Positions 21,525 to 35,532 are shown, counted from the stretch's first letter. The stretch: 35,532 nucleotides of DNA from a virus (IMGVR_UViG_3300040801_002731:70972-106503); one strand, 5' to 3'. Translations and numbers: made by a program. The notes: generated by a model not told the origin, from the letters alone.

Positions 21525-21698
21525 ATGGCACGCCAACAGGTCACGGTCAGCGACAGCATTCATCTGATGCTGAAGCGTATGGCGGCCTTGGAAGGCGTCA
21601 AGATGAACGATCTGATTTGGACGATGATCAAGACGCGCCTCGCCACCTATCAACCCCACGTTCGCCAATCCGTTATCGAAGGAATCAAGACGAAATGA
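21525..21698 (+). CDS. Ribbon-helix-helix-like protein 1, 57 aa (not in ORF track)
   Basis: AAGGA RBS; MARQQVTVSDSIHLMLKRMAALEGVKMNDLIWTMIKTRL...; ATGA overlap with the next gene. Confidence 0.75.
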   Translation: MARQQVTVSDSIHLMLKRMAALEGVKMNDLIWTMIKTRLATYQPHVRQSVIEGIKTK

Positions 21699-21883
21699 GC
21701 GAAAACAACAAGCCCACCAGCACCACCGTCAGCATTGCCGCCCCGCTGGCGAAGCAGCTTCGCGCCCTGGCGACCCTGAAGGGTATCAAGCCGTCCGCAA
21801 TCGTTGAGGAGGCGATCCGGCGCGAAGTGGCTCAGCAGCCGGAACACGTCAAGCTGACCCTGCGCGATCTGGGAGCCATCTGA
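21695..21883 (+). CDS. Ribbon-helix-helix-like protein 2, 62 aa
   Basis: TTVSIAAPLAKQLRALATLKGIKPSAIVEEAIRR, a CopG/MetJ-like pattern; start re-called to 21695. Confidence 0.78.
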   Translation: MSENNKPTSTTVSIAAPLAKQLRALATLKGIKPSAIVEEAIRREVAQQPEHVKLTLRDLGAI

Positions 21884-23913: not shown

Positions 23914-23992
23914 ACACTCAGACGCGATTCATTGGACATCGCCGGATCGCTGGATCTATCCTGAGCGAACCCGCCATCTAGCGAGTTCGCCC

Positions 23993-24658
23993 ATGAACGC
24001 CATCATCCTTGCTGCCGTTTCGCAAAAGGGCGGTGTCGGCAAAAGCACCGTCGCCCGCCTTCTCTCCACCGTCTACGCCGGCGCCGGCTGGGATGTGAAA
24101 CTGGCCGATCTGAACCTCAAGCAGAAGACCGCCGTCAACTGGGTGGCGGATCGTCTGCACGAGGGTATCACGCCAGAGATCACGGCCGAGCCTTTCGGCA
24201 CCGTCAAAAAGGCCCTGCGTCTCGCTGCGCAGTATGACGCCATGATCTTCGACGGCGCCCCGGACTCCCACGCTACCACACTTGAGATCGCCAAGGCCGC
24301 GCACGCCGTCTTCATTCCCACAGGCGTCACCAAGGACGACCTGATGCCCCAGGTGCTGCTCGCGCACGAGCTGACTGGCGATCACGGCATCGCGGTCGAG
24401 CGCATTCTGTTCGTGCTGAACAAGACCCTGGACAGCCAGGTCTCGGTCGACGAGGCGCGCACCTACGTCGAGCGGGCGGGCTACGCCTGCTCCAGCAATC
24501 ACCTGAAGATGTCCACCGGCTATCAGCGCGCACAGAACATCGGCCGCTCGGTCGCCGAGACCGAATACCCCACGCTCAATCAGGCGGCCGACCGGCTCGC
24601 GCAAGAGATGGTCGACTTCATTGAGCTGCGCGTCGGACTGAAGAAGGAGACGGCGTGA
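23993..24658 (+). CDS. parA: ParA family partition ATPase (short type Ib)
   Basis: Deviant Walker A QKGGVGKST, LADL, IFDGAP; no N-terminal HTH. Confidence 0.93.
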   Translation: MNAIILAAVSQKGGVGKSTVARLLSTVYAGAGWDVKLADLNLKQKTAVNWVADRLHEGITPEITAEPFGTVKKALRLAAQYDAMIFDGAPDSHATTLEIAKAAHAVFIPTGVTKDDLMPQVLLAHELTGDHGIAVERILFVLNKTLDSQVSVDEARTYVERAGYACSSNHLKMSTGYQRAQNIGRSVAETEYPTLNQAADRLAQEMVDFIELRVGLKKETA

Positions 24659-24900
24659 TGGCCGAGGTCAGCAAACCCATGCGGCGCAATCAGGTTGGAC
24701 GGCTCTCCGATCAGATGCCGCCGCCCCAGGACAACGCCCCCGGCAATCTGGCTGCGGCCGGCACGCGCGATCTGAACTTCAAGGTTGACCCGGACTTCCG
24801 GCGCCGGTTCAAGATGGAGGCGGTCACGCGCGACATGACCCAGGTGGATCTGCTGCGCGCGGCGTTCGAGCATTACATCAACACGAAGCCGCAGGACTGA
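24655..24900 (+). CDS. ParG-like RHH centromere-binding protein
   Basis: Flexible N-terminus followed by DLNFKVDPDFRRRFKMEAVTRDMTQVDLLRAAF; coupled to parA. Confidence 0.8.
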   Translation: MMAEVSKPMRRNQVGRLSDQMPPPQDNAPGNLAAAGTRDLNFKVDPDFRRRFKMEAVTRDMTQVDLLRAAFEHYINTKPQD

Positions 24901-25121: not shown

Positions 25122-25207
25122 TCCGGGTGGCGGGAGTCGAACCCGCACACTCTCTTTGAGCATCCGATTTTTAAGATCGGCGCGTCTACCAATTCCGCCA
25201 CACCCGG
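25122..25207 (-). tRNA. tRNA-Leu(UAA), no encoded CCA
   Basis: Acceptor stem CCGGGTG/CACCCGG plus discriminator A; D-arm GCG-GAATTGGTAGA-CGC; anticodon arm CCGAT-CTTAAAA-ATCGG; long variable arm; T-arm GCGGG-TTCGACT-CCCGC. Confidence 0.93.
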
Positions 25208-30863: not shown

Positions 30864-31514
30864 TTACACTGCGAAACGATTCGCCAGATATTCGGCGAAG
30901 TCGTTTTCATTTATAGTGTAGTATTCACGATTCATGTCGTCTTTGGCTTTTGTCCAGAAGCCAAAAGTAACCAAAGCCGACATTGCGGGGCTTCCCTGTC
31001 CGTTTGCCGTTCCCTGACTTGCGTTATTTCGCTTAAACAAGCGACACAACTTTGCATCAAGTGTCAACTTGTCAGAAACGCTTGCAAGCCCATAGTGATG
31101 ATAAAACGTGATCCCCTCTTTCTTTGCCACAAGCGCATTGTGGATAATTGCGCTTGCATGTTTGTTGATTGCGCTAACACTATCGAAAGCGCAAGCCACG
31201 CCAATATTTGCGCAATATTTCATTGCGTAAACATTATATCGCGTGCCGGCCTTGACTTGACGGTTCACAAAGTCGGCCGGAATGTTTGCAGCGATGCAAG
31301 CGCGTGCAAACGAGACTTTCGACATTTGCGCCAGATTCGCTTTCAAAGTATCCTGAATGTTTGCGTTTCCAGGATCCTTTGTCGTTTCATACTCTTTGCG
31401 CGCTTCCATTTGCTGGACAAGCGCGCTTGTCCACTCTTTCGCTTGTTCGTCAGTGATAGACTGGACGGAAGCGATGAAAGAGGGAATGTTTGCGTTGGTG
31501 GTCTTGCGTGCCAT
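30864..31514 (-). CDS. Hypothetical protein, 216 aa (cassette 1), lower GC
   Basis: AAGGA RBS, own leader and terminator; basic protein, possibly DNA-binding. Confidence 0.85.
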   Translation of the reverse strand: MARKTTNANIPSFIASVQSITDEQAKEWTSALVQQMEARKEYETTKDPGNANIQDTLKANLAQMSKVSFARACIAANIPADFVNRQVKAGTRYNVYAMKYCANIGVACAFDSVSAINKHASAIIHNALVAKKEGITFYHHYGLASVSDKLTLDAKLCRLFKRNNASQGTANGQGSPAMSALVTFGFWTKAKDDMNREYYTINENDFAEYLANRFAV

Positions 31515-31599
31515 TGTCTTGTTTCCTTGTTTGTGTGTTTGCGTTGTTTTTCCAAACGCAACAGCTTTTTCATTCTGTGCGCGTTCGGTTTTTTCACAA

Positions 31600-31641
31600 T
31601 GTCAAAGAGCGTATCGCGTTGTTTGTTTTGTCGTTCGCGAT
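31600..31641 (-). promoter_or_regulatory. boxB-like stem plus boxA-like antitermination sequence
   Basis: ATCGCG-N17-CGCGAT followed by CGCTCTTTGACA (rrn boxA consensus is TGCTCTTTAACA). Confidence 0.55.
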
Positions 31642-31669
31642 GACTCTTTTTTACTGGATTTCCCAAAAG

Positions 31670-31687
31670 TCAGTCAATCCTGATTTA
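31670..31687. promoter_or_regulatory. Operator copy overlapping a minus-strand TTGACT -35
   Basis: TCAGTCAATCCTGATTTA. Confidence 0.75.
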
Positions 31688-31893
31688 TCAAAAAAATTTT
31701 TTGCTGAAAAAACAGCATGTTAGAAAGCGCGAAAGCGCGATATCGCGCTTTCTCGAAAGAGCGAAAGAGCGAAAGCGCGACGACTCGAATCGTCGATTCG
31801 CGCACATTAGAATGATTGAATATGCAGACTCTGATTTGAGTCGTTTCGCATTGCGAACGGCTTTGACGCAAGCGCGTATAGTTAAGAATCGTT

Positions 31894-31989
31894 CTTATAT
31901 GTGTTTTTGCTTATATGCACAGTCTCTTATATGCACAGTCTCTTATATGCAGAGTTTCTTATATACGACGTTTCTTATATACGACGTTT
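31894..31989. repeat. Six tandem 16-bp repeats with CTTATAT core
   Basis: CTTATATGTGTTTTTG, CTTATATGCACAGTCT x2, CTTATATGCAGAGTTT, CTTATATACGACGTTT x2. Confidence 0.92.
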
Positions 31990-32031
31990 CTAAATTAGAT
32001 CCGTCTAATATGCGCCCGCTGCCCCACAACC

Positions 32032-32224
32032 CCATGGGATTCCGCCCATGGCCGTTCCCATGGCCGTTCCCATAGGCGCGTGCCCCTAGCCTTTCCCCTT
32101 GGAAACTGCCACGGAGCCTCACCCACGCGCAACCCCTGAGCCGTTCCCTATGGGTGTGCCGGCGCCGCTCCCATGCGCACGACCGAGGACGACGCCGAGG
32201 CGCTCCCCTTGGCACACACCAAGC
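32032..32224. repeat. Phased CCNNGG-type array
   Basis: CC at nine consecutive 12-bp steps from 32123 to 32219; CCATGG at 32032, 32046 and 32058. Confidence 0.85.
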
Positions 32225-32228
32225 GCAT

Positions 32229-32259
32229 GAGAAAGGGGAGCGCCCTCGACGCTCCCCTT
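32229..32259 (-). terminator. Terminator-like hairpin
   Basis: AAGGGGAGCG-N7-CGCTCCCCTT followed by TCTC. Confidence 0.65.
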
Positions 32260-32295
32260 CCCCGCTCTCGATCTACGTCCCGGAGCAGCGTGCGA

Positions 32296-32616
32296 TCACA
32301 GCTTGCCCGAAGCGAGCGCTTTGCGGAGCGCTTCAGCTTCCCGACGCTCCTCACGTCTGATCTGTGCGAGACGCTTCCGTTCGTGCGCCCGTTCGCGCTT
32401 CAGCTCATGGGCGCTTCGCATCATGTCGGCGGGCGCGTGATCGTAACCCAGCTTCTTCAAAGCGGGCTGGACGCGCTTCTCCGCGAAAAATTCAAGATGA
32501 GCGAAAGCGCGTTCGCGAAGGGAAGCGTCTTTCGCGTCACACGCCGCGAGCGCAAGCTCGGTCATGTCGGTGAGAAGGGAAACAGCGCGATCATAGCTCG
32601 GAGTGTTGGCAGACAT
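32296..32616 (-). CDS. Hypothetical helical protein, 106 aa (cassette 2)
   Basis: AAGGGAG RBS; start re-called to MSANTP. Confidence 0.75.
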   Translation of the reverse strand: MSANTPSYDRAVSLLTDMTELALAACDAKDASLRERAFAHLEFFAEKRVQPALKKLGYDHAPADMMRSAHELKRERAHERKRLAQIRREERREAEALRKALASGKL

Positions 32617-32699
32617 TTTGTTCTCCCTTGTCTGCGTTGCTGACAAGTAGAGTGTCGCGCTTTGCTGTTGGGTCTGCTTCCGGGAGATGAGCGGCAACT

Positions 32700-32890
32700 G
32701 AGCCGGGCGTGTCCACGGCGGATCTGTATGGAACAGCCCGGCCGAGAAGCCATGGACGGCCGGGAATGGCCTGACCCCTATGGACCGGCCTCGGCCTGAT
32801 GGACGTGGACCTGGCTATGGCGGCCTGGGATCGGAGAACCCCTTGGCCTGGCCTACATGGACCGGACCACGGGCTTGTCCTTGGGCGTTC
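32700..32890. repeat. CCNNGG/GGCC-dense spacer (looser phasing)
   Basis: CCNNGG at 32713, 32750, 32789, 32824, 32841, 32867 and 32879. Confidence 0.65.
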
Positions 32891-32898
32891 TCATGCGC

Positions 32899-32925
32899 GA
32901 GAGAGCGCGTCCGAAGACGCGCCCT
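32899..32925 (-). terminator. UUCG hairpin, terminator-like
   Basis: GCGCGTC-TTCG-GACGCGC followed by TCTCTC, just after the stop codon. Confidence 0.65.
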
Positions 32926-32931
32926 AAGCTC

Positions 32932-33300
32932 CTAGCTGAACACCTCTGCAAGCTCTCCACTCAGCTCCACTAGATACTGATACGCTTCTTGCGAAAAGCC
33001 GATGAGCGCTCCGTTCTCTCTGTCAATGCGTGTCGCTTCGAGTGCGAAATCATAGAGCGCAAAAAAACTATATCGTTTGTCAGCGAAACGACATCTCACC
33101 ATATCTGTTGAAACTCCTCTAATGATTCCTTCTTTAACGATTTTCGTTTTCACTTTGCGCGCTATATCAACTTCCAAGACAGTTTCCTCTTGCTTGTTCA
33201 TAACAAGCACAGAAAAAGTCGTTATGGACGTAGCATCGTCAATGAGCGTGCTCTCGGACTCGACGACTTGCGCGAAGAAAGCGATATCGCTGATTTTCAT
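32932..33300 (-). CDS. Hypothetical protein, 122 aa (cassette 3)
   Basis: GGAG RBS; start re-called to MKISD; contains no Pro or Trp. Confidence 0.78.
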   Translation of the reverse strand: MKISDIAFFAQVVESESTLIDDATSITTFSVLVMNKQEETVLEVDIARKVKTKIVKEGIIRGVSTDMVRCRFADKRYSFFALYDFALEATRIDRENGALIGFSQEAYQYLVELSGELAEVFS

Positions 33301-33390
33301 TGTTCGCTCCATTGCTTGTCTGTTCGCTTCATCGCGAACAAGTAAACAGTAGAGCGTTGTTTGTGGACTTCAGGTAGGAAGAAGCATGGA

Positions 33391-33520
33391 CCGAGGTGGG
33401 AAGATTTGCGGGTTTTCTCTTGGAGATTTCCTCGGTCGACGCGCCGGCGTTTTCCCTTGGCCGGCACCTTGGGCGTTCTCAGCGCAAGAAGAAAAGGCGT
33501 GCCCTTGAGCACGCCCTTGA
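33391..33520. repeat. Phased CCNNGG-type array
   Basis: TCTTGG 33418, CCTCGG 33430, CGCCGG 33442, CCTTGG 33455 and 33467, CCTTGA 33503 and 33515. Confidence 0.7.
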
Positions 33521-33616
33521 GTGTTCAAGCGGCGAAGAGGATGAAGTAGATCCCCAGAACCCCGAACATCATCAGCAGGCCGAGGAACTCTCCGGCCCAT
33601 CGGGCAATTTCTCGGA

Positions 33617-33817
33617 TCATGACAGGCACTCCCCGCGGCAGGCGTTGAGGTCTCGGTCGAGGTCTCGGAGCAGGACGCTGCGGGGATCGTCTCGGCCGAT
33701 CTGCGGGAACGTCTCGACGCCCGAGGCGTCGATCACGGAGTAGACGAGACGGGTGAGGTGCCGGGAGAGGCGATAGATGCGGCCCGATGGGGAGAAGTAT
33801 TCTCGCACGACAGTCAT
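33617..33817 (-). CDS. Hypothetical protein, 66 aa (cassette 4)
   Basis: Leader TGTCAGCAACG...AAAGGGAAC is shared with cassette 2; start re-called to MTVVREY. Confidence 0.6.
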   Translation of the reverse strand: MTVVREYFSPSGRIYRLSRHLTRLVYSVIDASGVETFPQIGRDDPRSVLLRDLDRDLNACRGECLS

Positions 33818-33901
33818 GAGCGTGTTCCCTTTGCTCGTTGCTGACATGCTCATGCTCGCGTTTTCAGATTGGGGTCTCGGCTGGGTTGTTCTGCGGTTGT
33901 T

Positions 33902-34003
33902 GGTCGGCCGGTGCCTTGGGGCGCTCTATGGGCCGGGCCAGGGAAGTCTTCTCGGCCGGCACTCTGGGCATATCCTCGGACAGCCCCTTGGGGCATGTCA
34001 TGC
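33902..34003. repeat. Phased CCNNGG-type array
   Basis: Eight consecutive 12-bp registers (33902-33986) have GG at hexamer positions 5-6; four are full CCNNGG. Confidence 0.8.
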
Positions 34004-34005
34004 GT

Positions 34006-34032
34006 GAGAGTGCAGCGGGCTGCTGCACTCTC
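34006..34032 (-). terminator. Hairpin after the cassette 5 stop
   Basis: Perfect 11-bp stem GAGAGTGCAGC-N5-GCTGCACTCTC; no clear U tract. Confidence 0.5.
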
Positions 34033-34039
34033 TGCGGGG

Positions 34040-34291
34040 TTACGCTGCTTCGTCGTCAAGCGGGTCGTCGAGCAACGCGACGATCTCGTCGTTGGCGCGC
34101 TGCATCAGAACGAACAGCTCGTTGGGCGTCAGCGTCTCGTCGTGACGTTCGATGCTGTAGATTAGACGCTCGGCGTTCGTCATTTTGACAACAGCGGCGA
34201 TCTTGTCGCTGTCTTTCTTGTAAATCTTGACTTCGGCTTCGTCGTTGGTCATGTCGTAGTCAACAGCGAAAGTGTAATTTGTCTGGTTCAT
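34040..34291 (-). CDS. Small acidic hypothetical protein, 83 aa (cassette 5)
   Basis: Start re-called to MNQTNY; Asp/Glu-rich, with no Gly or Trp. Confidence 0.78.
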   Translation of the reverse strand: MNQTNYTFAVDYDMTNDEAEVKIYKKDSDKIAAVVKMTNAERLIYSIERHDETLTPNELFVLMQRANDEIVALLDDPLDDEAA

Positions 34292-34452
34292 GGCTCTCTC
34301 GTTTGTTTGGTTGTTTGTTCGCTTCGCTGCGAACAAGTAGACTTTACGCGCGCAACTTCGGGGAACAGACTGGCATATTTATGCGATCTGCGGCGGGGCT
34401 GCGCGCGGGCGTGGGCTTGTCGGTGATATAGCGGGCATGGGCCTGGGGTTGC

Positions 34453-34720
34453 CCTTGGCATTGTCCATGGAATTTCCCATGCGAACCGCCAACACGCCGG
34501 CCATGGGAGTTCCCAGAGCAGAGCCCACGGACCTGCCCATGCGAGAGACCGAGGAGGGCGCCAACACGCCGGCCATGGGAGTTCCCTCGGCGATGCCCTT
34601 GGATGACACCGTGGGCCGGGCCGCGGCACGGCGCGTAGGCAAGGCCATGGCCGTTCCCAGAGGTCACCCCTGAGCCGTTCCCTATGGGATACCTGCCTGC
34701 CCGTGGCCTTTCCCTATGGG
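34453..34720. repeat. Longest phased CCNNGG-type array (12-bp period)
   Basis: 19 of 20 consecutive 12-bp registers from 34453 to 34681 begin with CC, and 11 are full CCNNGG. Confidence 0.92.
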
Positions 34721-34788
34721 CGCGCCAAAAAGATGCCCGACTGGACGAACCAGCCGGGCGAGTTCATGGCATCGCAAATCGAAAAGGG

Positions 34789-35079
34789 TCAGGCGAGGCT
34801 CTTCCAGGAGAACTGGAAGCCATTGCCGAAGATCGTGAGGCGCGCCGGGAGGCTCCTGCCGTCGGGCATGGTCAGCGCCGGAGTTATGCTTGTCTTGATC
34901 TCCCGGTGTCCGATGCCGTGCTGGGCGAGGAGCGCGCGGACCATGTTGATCGCGTGCTGGGGGTCGGCGGCGCTTTGGCTGGGGATGAGCCGCGGGAGGT
35001 CGTGCTTGACCGTCTCCAGGATGTCGTAGCCGCTCGGGCCGTAGAAGAAACAGGCCCCGTCGAGCTTGAAGTAGGACAT
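34789..35079 (-). CDS. Hypothetical protein, 96 aa (cassette 6)
   Basis: Start re-called to MSYFKL; leader TAACAGACTCATCG resembles that of cassette 1. Confidence 0.68.
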   Translation of the reverse strand: MSYFKLDGACFFYGPSGYDILETVKHDLPRLIPSQSAADPQHAINMVRALLAQHGIGHREIKTSITPALTMPDGRSLPARLTIFGNGFQFSWKSLA

Positions 35080-35186
35080 GACGCTCTCGCCTCGTGTCGT
35101 TGTCGATGAGTCTGTTATCGCGCACCAGGTTTGGGGACGCGGCTGGGAACGCAGAGGATTGAGCAGCGCTGTCGGGGCACGAAAGC

Positions 35187-35258
35187 GCGTCACAGAGCGC
35201 GACCGGGGCGTTCTGCTGTCGAGCTACGCTGCGCGTGACGGATCGCGCTCTGTGACGC
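35187..35258. repeat. 16-bp perfect inverted repeat (long hairpin)
   Basis: GCGTCACAGAGCGCGA-N40-TCGCGCTCTGTGACGC. Confidence 0.8.
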
Positions 35259-35532
35259 TCTAAGAGCGATTCAGCGACAGCCAAATCACGCGAGAAAGCG
35301 ATAGCGCGAGTGCGCGTGTTCGCGCTTGGGCGAAGGCCAGAGGCCAGCGGACCAGAGACCTCGGCCTGGAGGCCGTGGACGGCCGGACCCTCATGGACCG
35401 GCCTTCAGGCCATGAACCGGAGGACCTATCATTCCGAGTGGGTTTTGGCGGTTCGAGGGCCGAGGGCTTTTCCTCGCCCTGGAGCGAAATCATGAAAATT
35501 GGGGATCTGGAATTGTAAGGCGCCCCTTGGCA

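Follow-up and report, generated by a model that had tools for sequence, protein, structure and literature searches.

Phased CCATGG-type clusters between the small-gene cassettes of a phage-plasmid and its relatives

The final 35.5 kb of the virus record IMGVR_UViG_3300040801_002731 carries a train of small minus-strand genes whose spacers hold arrays of CC..GG hexamers, and the question raised by this locus is what role such arrays may have when the sequence around the hexamers varies from one unit to the next. The original prediction, made from the sequence alone, took the arrays to be either a landing track for a protein that polymerises with a 12-bp footprint (for coating, silencing, an injection pause or a packaging signal) or a dense target or decoy field for an enzyme specific for CC/GG. 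We refer to the whole stretch analysed (positions 70972-106503 of the 106,503-bp record; 35,532 nucleotides) as the window, and to the full record as G000; coordinates given without a label are those of the window.

G000 is linear according to IMG/VR, with a completeness of 96% (CheckV). It has the hallmarks of a phage-plasmid, namely capsid, portal and terminase genes, two ParB_N proteins, a helicase, a type Ib ParA and a 1630-amino-acid (aa) helicase/methylase fusion, and by this gene content the source element is a phage-plasmid. Its TerL is 65% identical to TerL of Rhizobium phage RHEph10; the runners-up are Klebsiella phage-plasmid-like records. The arrays lie beside 16-bp iterons and the gene of a 216-aa protein.

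A 12-bp register of CC..GG hexamers

We calculated the autocorrelation of CC and GG positions over the six stretches named in the original prediction and compared it with 300 dinucleotide-preserving shuffles. CC..GG pairs occur 12 times at lag 12, where 0.3 are expected (z = 22.8), and the harmonics are present at lag 24 (nine pairs, z = 17) and lag 36 (six pairs, z = 12); the single dinucleotides also peak at lag 12 (CC, z = 8.5; GG, z = 4.7), and there are no CC..GG pairs at lag 10. The predicted recurrence of a CC..GG hexamer every 12 bp thus stands well clear of shuffled controls. The register is strictest at 34453-34681, where CC starts 19 of 20 positions (the best of 2000 shuffles reached nine), at 32123-32219, where CC begins all nine registers, and at 33902-33986, where GG ends all eight hexamers; these counts, and the list of hexamers originally given for 34453-34681, proved exact on recount. 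The extension of the register to all six stretches fared less well: it is only partial at 33418-33520, with slips of 13-14 bp, and is not shared by 32700-32890 or 35330-35480, where the best 12-bp register scores are 5/18 and 4/14.

Four arrays can be delimited in the window, all described on the plus strand. Array A (32032-32230) has 16 CCNNGG-type units at steps of 12-14 bp and is strict (9/9) from 32123 onwards; array C (33391-33525) has about ten units at steps of 12-14 bp; array D (33902-33998) has eight units in strict 12-bp register, all ending in GG; and array E (34442-34735) has about 22-25 units, with 15 consecutive steps of exactly 12 bp. Further arrays lie outside the window near the contig start, at G000 895-965 and 1150-1500. 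Steps of 11, 13 and 14 bp are present in arrays A and C and in the contig-start array (H), so that the occasional 13-14 bp steps first noticed in the spacers are indeed there, and they speak against a coding origin.

Within a unit, 4-6 of the 12 positions are conserved: besides CC and GG there are a weaker centre, W-T, and a flank of TTC/G-C. The core reads CC-W-T-GG and is pseudo-palindromic; its best form is CCATGG, and the fullest sites approach TTCCCATGGGAA. Most units in G000 are degenerate directional variants rather than CCATGG itself, which ranks second among spacer hexamers behind CCAAGG/CCTTGG. The arrays are directional, as CCTTGG occurs 16 times and CCAAGG once on the plus strand of the zone. 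They are also, as first described, not ordinary tandem repeats: at a minimum score of 30, the sole report of Tandem Repeats Finder (TRF) for the arrays is a run of 4.2 copies with 79% matches at 32045-32097, and arrays C, D and E go unreported. A generic lag-identity scan did not detect the arrays because the CC and GG letters alone are kept, and in a whole-genome gapped-word scan the signal was drowned by codon periodicity.

Motif clusters in related phage-plasmids

Three complete relatives were reached through TerL, here called G001 (116.7 kb), G002 (116.1 kb) and G003 (102.7 kb). Clusters of CCATGG or CCNNGG were found in the same gaps, just past terminators, in G001, G002, the contigs L197-L199, L200 and L202, and RHEph10; in all, at least eight elements carry them, among them two complete phage-plasmids from IMG/VR, five contigs of metagenomic or genomic origin and the cultured RHEph10. 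The order of terminator, cluster and promoter holds in the relatives, and there is no sequence identity between arrays of different elements. CCATGG is the most enriched spacer hexamer in G001, G002, L197, L198 and L199 (z = 15-24). In RHEph10, 18 of 24 copies of CCATGG fall within a 12-kb zone (86.7-98.9 kb), which includes six units at 10-bp steps (95931-95982); the corresponding figures are 16 of 27 copies within 3.7 kb for G002 and at least 17 of 24 within 4.4 kb for G001.

The spacing of the motif differs between elements. Pooled over the relatives, lag 10 has 22 pairs where 0.4 are expected (z = 34), and the peak repeats at lag 20 (z = 19) and lag 30 (z = 17); the next spacings after this peak and its harmonics are 11 and 12 bp. 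As the relatives are mainly at 10 bp and G000 has no pairs at lag 10, the 12-bp register is specific to the G000 lineage. To the question originally posed, whether relatives keep the period without sequence identity, the answer is that the motif clusters occupy the same gaps and share no identity, but that the 12-bp period is not kept. In L201, which is distant and AT-rich, the architecture is retained but the site is a different one, CC-W5/6-GG; all 14 of its copies are intergenic, against 1.3 expected, and the pattern is what co-evolving protein/site pairs look like.

The concentration of the motif in the spacers is accompanied by its depletion elsewhere. G000 has 14 copies of CCATGG where 35 are expected; ten of these are inside the 5.1-kb array zone, leaving four outside where 33 are expected. 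The concentration is similar in G001, G002 and RHEph10, and a 76-kb fragment, G004, has no copy. G003, which is without the ParA, the clusters and the winged-helix family described below, has 29 scattered copies. CCATGG is not the only palindrome that G000 avoids: at least 14 palindromes of 6 bp, each with an expectation of 13-53 copies, are absent from 101 kb (among them ACGCGT, AGGCCT, ATCGAT, CACGTG, CAGCTG, CTCGAG and CTGCAG), CCCGGG has three copies (88 expected) and CCTAGG one. That CCATGG is purged outside the arrays is compatible both with a functional site and with pressure from restriction.

Other searches returned little. Single small-protein queries of IMG/VR with the 216-aa protein, the product of cassette gene 2 and ParA yielded no relatives, and a word-indexed protein search returned only the query protein itself. 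No DNA similarity to the array region was found among 50,697 phage records. Exact-word scans for pieces of the arrays gave no match in metagenome contigs and one chance match in IMG/VR, within a capsid gene, and thus provide no close relative for a unit-by-unit evolutionary comparison. Searching IMG/VR for the pattern of five CCNNGG in steps of 12 bp gave 120 loci; the arrays inspected were homogeneous in-frame repeats of tetrapeptide type, and the loci were set aside as not being this element. Many GC-rich viral contigs of about 40 kb (L008, L013, L027, L030, L061 and L080) have long homogeneous 12-bp repeats (GCGTCCCTGGCT-like), often at contig ends, which look like alanine/tryptophan-rich tetrapeptide repeats of phage proteins. 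Literature searches turned up no account of the phased repeats in papers on RHEph10 or pLM21S1 or in related work.

Cassettes, other spacers and neighbouring genes

Along the minus strand, the order after a gene is terminator (34759 to 34735, 33518 to 33493 and 30856 to 30828), array, a leader of 60-150 bp and the next gene. The arrays start just past minus-strand terminators (34759 to 34735 and 33518 to 33493, and the hairpin at 32257 to 32228 described below) and stop 60-150 bp short of the next start codon, so that they occupy the DNA from the end of one transcription unit to the promoter of the next. The layout of a cassette is accordingly array, promoter with its own operator, small gene and terminator, and at least eight arrays are dispersed between cassettes.

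The window has five cassette genes, all on the minus strand, for none of which was a family match found. Cassette gene 1 (32296-32619) encodes 107 aa from its ATG. A terminator-like hairpin with an 8-bp GC stem followed by TTTCT (32257 to 32228 on the minus strand), picked out by eye and unlisted in the consensus scan, comes after this gene and immediately ahead of array A along transcription. Cassette gene 2 (32932-33312) encodes 126 aa, and cassette gene 3 (33617-33853) encodes 78 aa; the upper end of array C, which lies between them, overlaps the terminator at 33518 to 33493. Cassette gene 4 (34040-34336) is an open reading frame (ORF) of 98 aa, and cassette gene 5 (34789-35193) an ORF of up to 134 aa whose intrinsic terminator (34735-34759, minus strand) is directly upstream of array E in the sense of transcription. 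The leaders are of two related kinds, one of which carries a TGTTCGC-N6-GCGAACA inverted repeat (repeat family D3 in the leader of gene 2, with the same type of operator in the leader of gene 4).

Several blocks beside the arrays are poor in CC and GG (30864-32025, 32296-32619, 32932-33312, 34040-34436 and 35081-35325). Gene 4 has no CC on the plus strand, where 17 are expected; gene 2 has two GG (14 expected) and 11 CC (27 expected). In these stretches CG and GC are at 1.5-1.85 times expectation. The relatives are equally poor in CC/GG around the short winged-helix gene (L190 1600-2500; L197 12540-12843), partly in alternating purine-pyrimidine runs. Matches to Rap1a, the Acb2/Tad1 hairpin, DUF3085 and a BrxR-type winged helix come from genes inside or adjoining the cassette zone in relatives (L197 13923-14267; L201 1552-1929 and 6655-7167; L200 533-772 and 6273-6635), and these matches make the zone look like an anti-defence island.

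The two stretches without the register belong to a second class of spacer. Spacer B (32700-32895), rich in GGCC-N-GG(A)CC and ATGGAC, and spacer F (35326-35475; repeat families D6-D9) are homologous, being 82-86% alike across about 35 bp. Spacers of this class also occur in relatives (L195 10940-11060, L197 11640-11760, L198 8550-8640); they are rich in GGCC-N-GGCC / GGACCGGCC and ATGGAC and alternate with the CCATGG-type arrays. Other spacer elements recur as well. After the contig-start arrays come a triple AGTCCCA repeat, an AT-rich palindrome of the ctatagatatata type and a CTCT/GGCCTCTG-rich tract, and G002 has this palindrome and this tract at the corresponding place (L001 990-1075 and 1840-2100; L195 11083-11108, 13065-13090 and 13330-13700). 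A 19-bp inverted repeat with 95% complementarity (35184-35202 / 35243-35261) lies in a CC-poor spacer; part of it (GCGCTCTGTGACGCTCTAAGAGCGATT) recurs at L197 12730-12770, which suggests a conserved non-coding element such as a small RNA or part of an origin. The conserved spacer word (T)AGGAACCGGT is found at L190 600-625 and 1445-1475, L198 7750-7790 and 9340-9365, L201 5050-5065 and L001 about 1345-1360. It is kept even in the AT-rich L201 and may be the site of the invariant helix of the winged-helix family.

Array A begins 40 bp beyond about five iteron-like 16-bp direct repeats (31910-31991, plus strand; TRF period 16, 4.2-4.4 copies; repeat family D2), the probable replication origin. 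The 1630-aa helicase/methylase gene intervenes between parA and the arrays in G000 and does not do so in the relatives; a tRNA gene (25122-25207, minus strand; Rfam, 60.4 bits) lies between the par operon and this gene. At the start of G000 only 144 codons of a long-form winged-helix gene remain, against about 280 in homologues; part of the DNA is therefore missing, probably with further arrays. We rejected a circular contig, to which an ORF apparently crossing both ends had pointed: judged against the 280-aa homologues, this is a gene cut by the contig end, and the record is linear.

Candidate functions and known systems

We propose that the arrays act in cis, as double-stranded DNA, and serve a sequence-specific, dimeric DNA-binding protein as docking tracks. 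To this reading we would give an even chance; our confidence in any specific named binder is much lower. A dimeric protein of the phage-plasmid would bind each hexamer and, on runs of hexamers, assemble side by side into a higher-order complex upstream of each cassette promoter and downstream of the previous terminator. Such a complex would co-regulate the cassettes, probably repressing them in the plasmid state, and insulate them; it may additionally pair or position plasmid copies. The working principle would be that of StbA on the stbDR arrays in the leading region of R388. The 12-bp and 10-bp registers might then reflect different packing of the bound protein, or the former might be mere amplification of a 12-bp founder unit. 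Of the landing track originally envisaged, docking at the level of DNA fits best with the position of the arrays, the pseudo-palindrome and the relatives, but a 12-bp footprint is not conserved; the injection-pause and packaging versions are without support, given that the arrays, of which there are at least eight, are spread among the cassettes.

None of the binders put forward in the original prediction (the ParB-like, winged helix-turn-helix, ribbon-helix-helix (RHH) and 216-aa proteins) could be linked to the arrays by sequence analysis. The 216-aa protein (30864-31514, minus strand) is the short form of a winged-helix family; it is 34% identical to the long form whose gene is truncated at the contig start. 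An exhaustive profile search found 396 clusters of this family at 50% identity, with no Pfam match; members have a long form (about 270-350 aa) or a short form (about 200 aa), and G001 and G002 encode homologues of both. Examples are L001 3-434 (minus strand), L192 1381-2223, and L195 9162-9779 and 12080-12922. The family is marked by an invariant N-R...R-Y-N-V-Y-A motif and a C-terminal winged helix. In an AlphaFold 2 model of the 216-aa protein (predicted local distance difference test score 80), residues from about 102 to 216 form the winged helix (Z = 7-8.9), and a Foldseek search of the PDB with this model gave no significant match. Where the DNA fetched from relatives covers the zone, the small cassettes near parA lie between the genes of the long and the short form, and CCATGG clusters are on both sides of the long gene where its surroundings were read, as would be expected for an autoregulated site-binding protein. 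The family is thus the best candidate binder, although a still weak one.

The par genes provide another candidate. At 23993-24900, G000 encodes a 221-aa type Ib ParA, which matches CbiA/AAA_31/MipZ, and downstream of it an 81-aa RHH_10-like protein (phrog_6024), whose RHH_10 match is below the curated cut-off (E = 5.7e-5). A pair of RHH proteins encoded at 21525-21883 counts as a further candidate. The parA promoter regions of G000 and L197-L199 have repeats of the GTTCGC/TTCGCTA type and no CCNNGG cluster. The leaders of cassette genes 2 and 4 carry inverted repeats of GTTCGC/GCGAAC (33312-33347 and 34307-34342), a related form of which stands just upstream of parA (23950-23990), where relatives have repeats of the TTCGCTA type; these are probably operators of the RHH partner of ParA, by which some cassettes would be tied to the par regulon.

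Several observations weigh against the docking-track proposal or its candidate binders, and the proposal needs to be read with them in mind. The period varies, from 12 bp in G000 to 10 bp in most relatives and 11-16 bp in G001, which is awkward for a single conserved cooperative geometry. A 72-bp duplication inside array E (repeat family D5) and a 23-bp identical piece common to arrays A and E indicate that slippage and conversion contribute to the register. As G000 avoids many palindromes, the purge of CCATGG may be avoidance of restriction and not of ectopic binding, in which case the retention of CCATGG inside the arrays becomes the notable point. The winged-helix matches are generic (VIA-align, Z = 7-9). 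The conserved helix of the family (T-x-x-T-Q-S/A-S-S) is identical in L201 despite the different spacer site, so no covariation ties the family to the motif, and the attempt to link this helix with the motif failed. The RHH partner of ParA is predicted, from the repeats at its own promoter, to bind operators of the GTTCGC/TTCGCTA type and probably not the arrays, and with no CCNNGG cluster at the parA promoter a classic centromere role is unsupported.

It is possible, though doubtful, that the hexamer clusters are functional and their strict 12-bp register mechanically meaningless, a founder unit having been amplified by slippage and spread by conversion, after which selection preserved just the CC and GG letters. 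The duplications described above would be explained in this way, as would the near-perfect four-copy 12-bp run at 32045-32097 and the relatives that have the same element mainly at 10 bp and with irregular steps. However, at least five arrays with otherwise unrelated units keep the 12-bp step over up to 15 consecutive units, CC..GG pairs at lag 10 are absent from G000, and decay after amplification would bring indels unless the step were constrained. We consider it unlikely that the clusters are restriction-type palindromes (CCATGG, NcoI-type, or more broadly CCWWGG/CCNNGG) that act through a host modification or restriction enzyme, either sensing methylation state so that the cassettes are switched on upon arrival in a new host, or lying between the self-contained cassettes as a decoy or sacrificial field. 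The near-absence of CCATGG outside the arrays in G000, G001, G002, G004 and RHEph10, which does not extend to the array-less G003, would suit such a role, and so would the extreme avoidance of other 6-bp palindromes, the Acb2/Tad1 and Rap1a families among the cassette genes of relatives and the CC/GG-poor composition of several cassettes. Against it, the degenerate directional units could not be read by any single type II enzyme, helical phasing (10 bp in the relatives) is unexpected of enzyme targets, L201 has a CC-W5/6-GG site instead, and no N4/N6 (PF01555) or C5 (PF00145) methyltransferase gene was found in G000-G004.

Still less probable is a parS-like centromere that serves the type Ib ParA and is recognised by its 81-aa RHH partner. 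Both proteins are encoded in G000, short and weakly conserved repeat arrays typify type Ib centromeres such as that of pCXC100, and the arrays are about 2-3 kb from parA in G001 and G002; but in G000 a distance of 7 kb separates them from parA, they number at least eight instead of one or two, and it is the GTTCGC/TTCGCTA-type repeats that lie directly upstream of parA here and in three relatives. We place lower again a view in which the arrays, the CCATGG purge and the CC/GG-free cassettes are one device for sensing or exploiting entry into a new host. The palindromes would be kept only between self-contained anti-defence cassettes, each with promoter, gene and terminator; the sites would report the methylation or occupancy of incoming DNA, or absorb a host defence that reads CC/GG; and the cassettes would fire ahead of exposure of the remaining genome. 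Least probable of all is action through RNA (Rho utilisation, protein-binding RNA or structured RNA) or the coding of tetrapeptide repeats. Rho primary sites prefer regularly spaced YC dimers, which in the arrays would come about every 12 nt; array E is open in all three minus frames and one plus frame, and array A folds better than shuffles (z = -4.0). On the other hand, the arrays lie after intrinsic terminators, three of the four array pieces show no folding advantage over shuffles (z = +0.2 to +0.45), and Rfam 15 gave no array match at gathering score in the window and L001, where the sole match is the tRNA gene. G is at least 27% on both strands and the skew, (C-G)/(C+G), is small and inconsistent in sign (+0.21 to -0.11), which makes a Rho-utilisation site unlikely. 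A repeat-coding origin is ruled out by steps that are not multiples of three, such as those of 13-14 bp here and of 10-11 bp in relatives, which break the reading frame; the coding CCNNGG repeats met in IMG/VR, homogeneous and strictly in frame, also look quite different.

The phage-plasmids of the RHEph10 / pLM21S1 type, which are Rhizobium-phage relatives of the SSU5 group, are widespread and their control circuits unstudied. The phased CCATGG-type clusters define a class of conserved non-coding element between the cassettes of their maintenance and accessory-gene island. If the arrays are operators of one protein, they would delimit a regulon of small accessory genes, some of them anti-defence in relatives, and would offer a handle for locating such genes in uncultured elements. 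As the element is present in the cultured RHEph10 (Rhizobium etli CFN42), the hypothesis is open to bench testing, and the shift between 10-bp and 12-bp registers among relatives is a natural experiment on how far cooperative DNA-binding assemblies tolerate re-phasing.

Among known systems, small winged-helix phage proteins that polymerise on 5-7 direct repeats about one turn apart and control promoters are represented by the cox-boxes of P2, the Apl sites of 186 and Xis of lambda; their few arrays are situated at attP and the lysis-lysogeny switch, whereas here at least eight flank the accessory cassettes of a non-integrating phage-plasmid. The omega protein of pSM19035 binds heptad repeats and regulates several promoters. 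The type Ib centromeres resemble the arrays in having weakly conserved, strictly phased short repeats that are first visible as periodicity only. In pCXC100 the ParB centromere consists of nine unspaced 9-bp repeats of modest conservation, on which dimers bind cooperatively (PMC3074162). G000 shares with such systems a small Walker ParA and an RHH protein; it differs in that neither the window nor L197-L199 has the repeat array at the parA promoter, and in a period of 12 or 10 bp rather than 7-9 bp.

Head-to-tail direct repeats of 12 bp also form tubC of pBtoxis, which is described, where the R388 study touches on it, as seven repeats in two sets (bioRxiv 10.1101/2022.04.29.490116) and is bound by TubR, a filament-forming winged-helix protein. 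TubR is among the generic fold matches of the 216-aa protein (4asn, Z = 7.1; 3m8e, Z = 6.9), a match that is not specific. No TubZ (PF00091) was found in G000, G001 or G002, although 13 of 14 control genomes were matched; the partition ATPase here is instead a type Ib ParA, and the arrays are many and dispersed as opposed to a single centromere.

The closest likeness in working principle is to StbA, a small PadR-like HTH (helix-turn-helix) protein of the IncW plasmid R388, which binds stbDR cooperatively and represses genes; R388 has arrays of 2-10 short direct repeats at five leading-region promoters, in addition to the larger stbS centromere, and the stbDR cycle of 9 bp + 2 bp is, at 11 bp, near-helical (bioRxiv 10.1101/2022.04.29.490116). 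In both cases phased repeat arrays occupy the control regions of several separate small-gene operons in a maintenance or establishment region. The arrays described here differ in their 6-bp pseudo-palindrome, their 12-bp cycle (10 bp in relatives), their size, which reaches 16-25 units, and their far greater degeneracy; they belong to a phage-plasmid and not to a conjugative plasmid, and we do not claim membership of the R388 system. StbA is the cognate HTH repressor there, while here no StbA homologue was identified and candidate winged-helix proteins flank the zone. The element is thus new as such, but of a known kind, that of phased operator-like or centromere-like arrays, and it is conserved across the clade.

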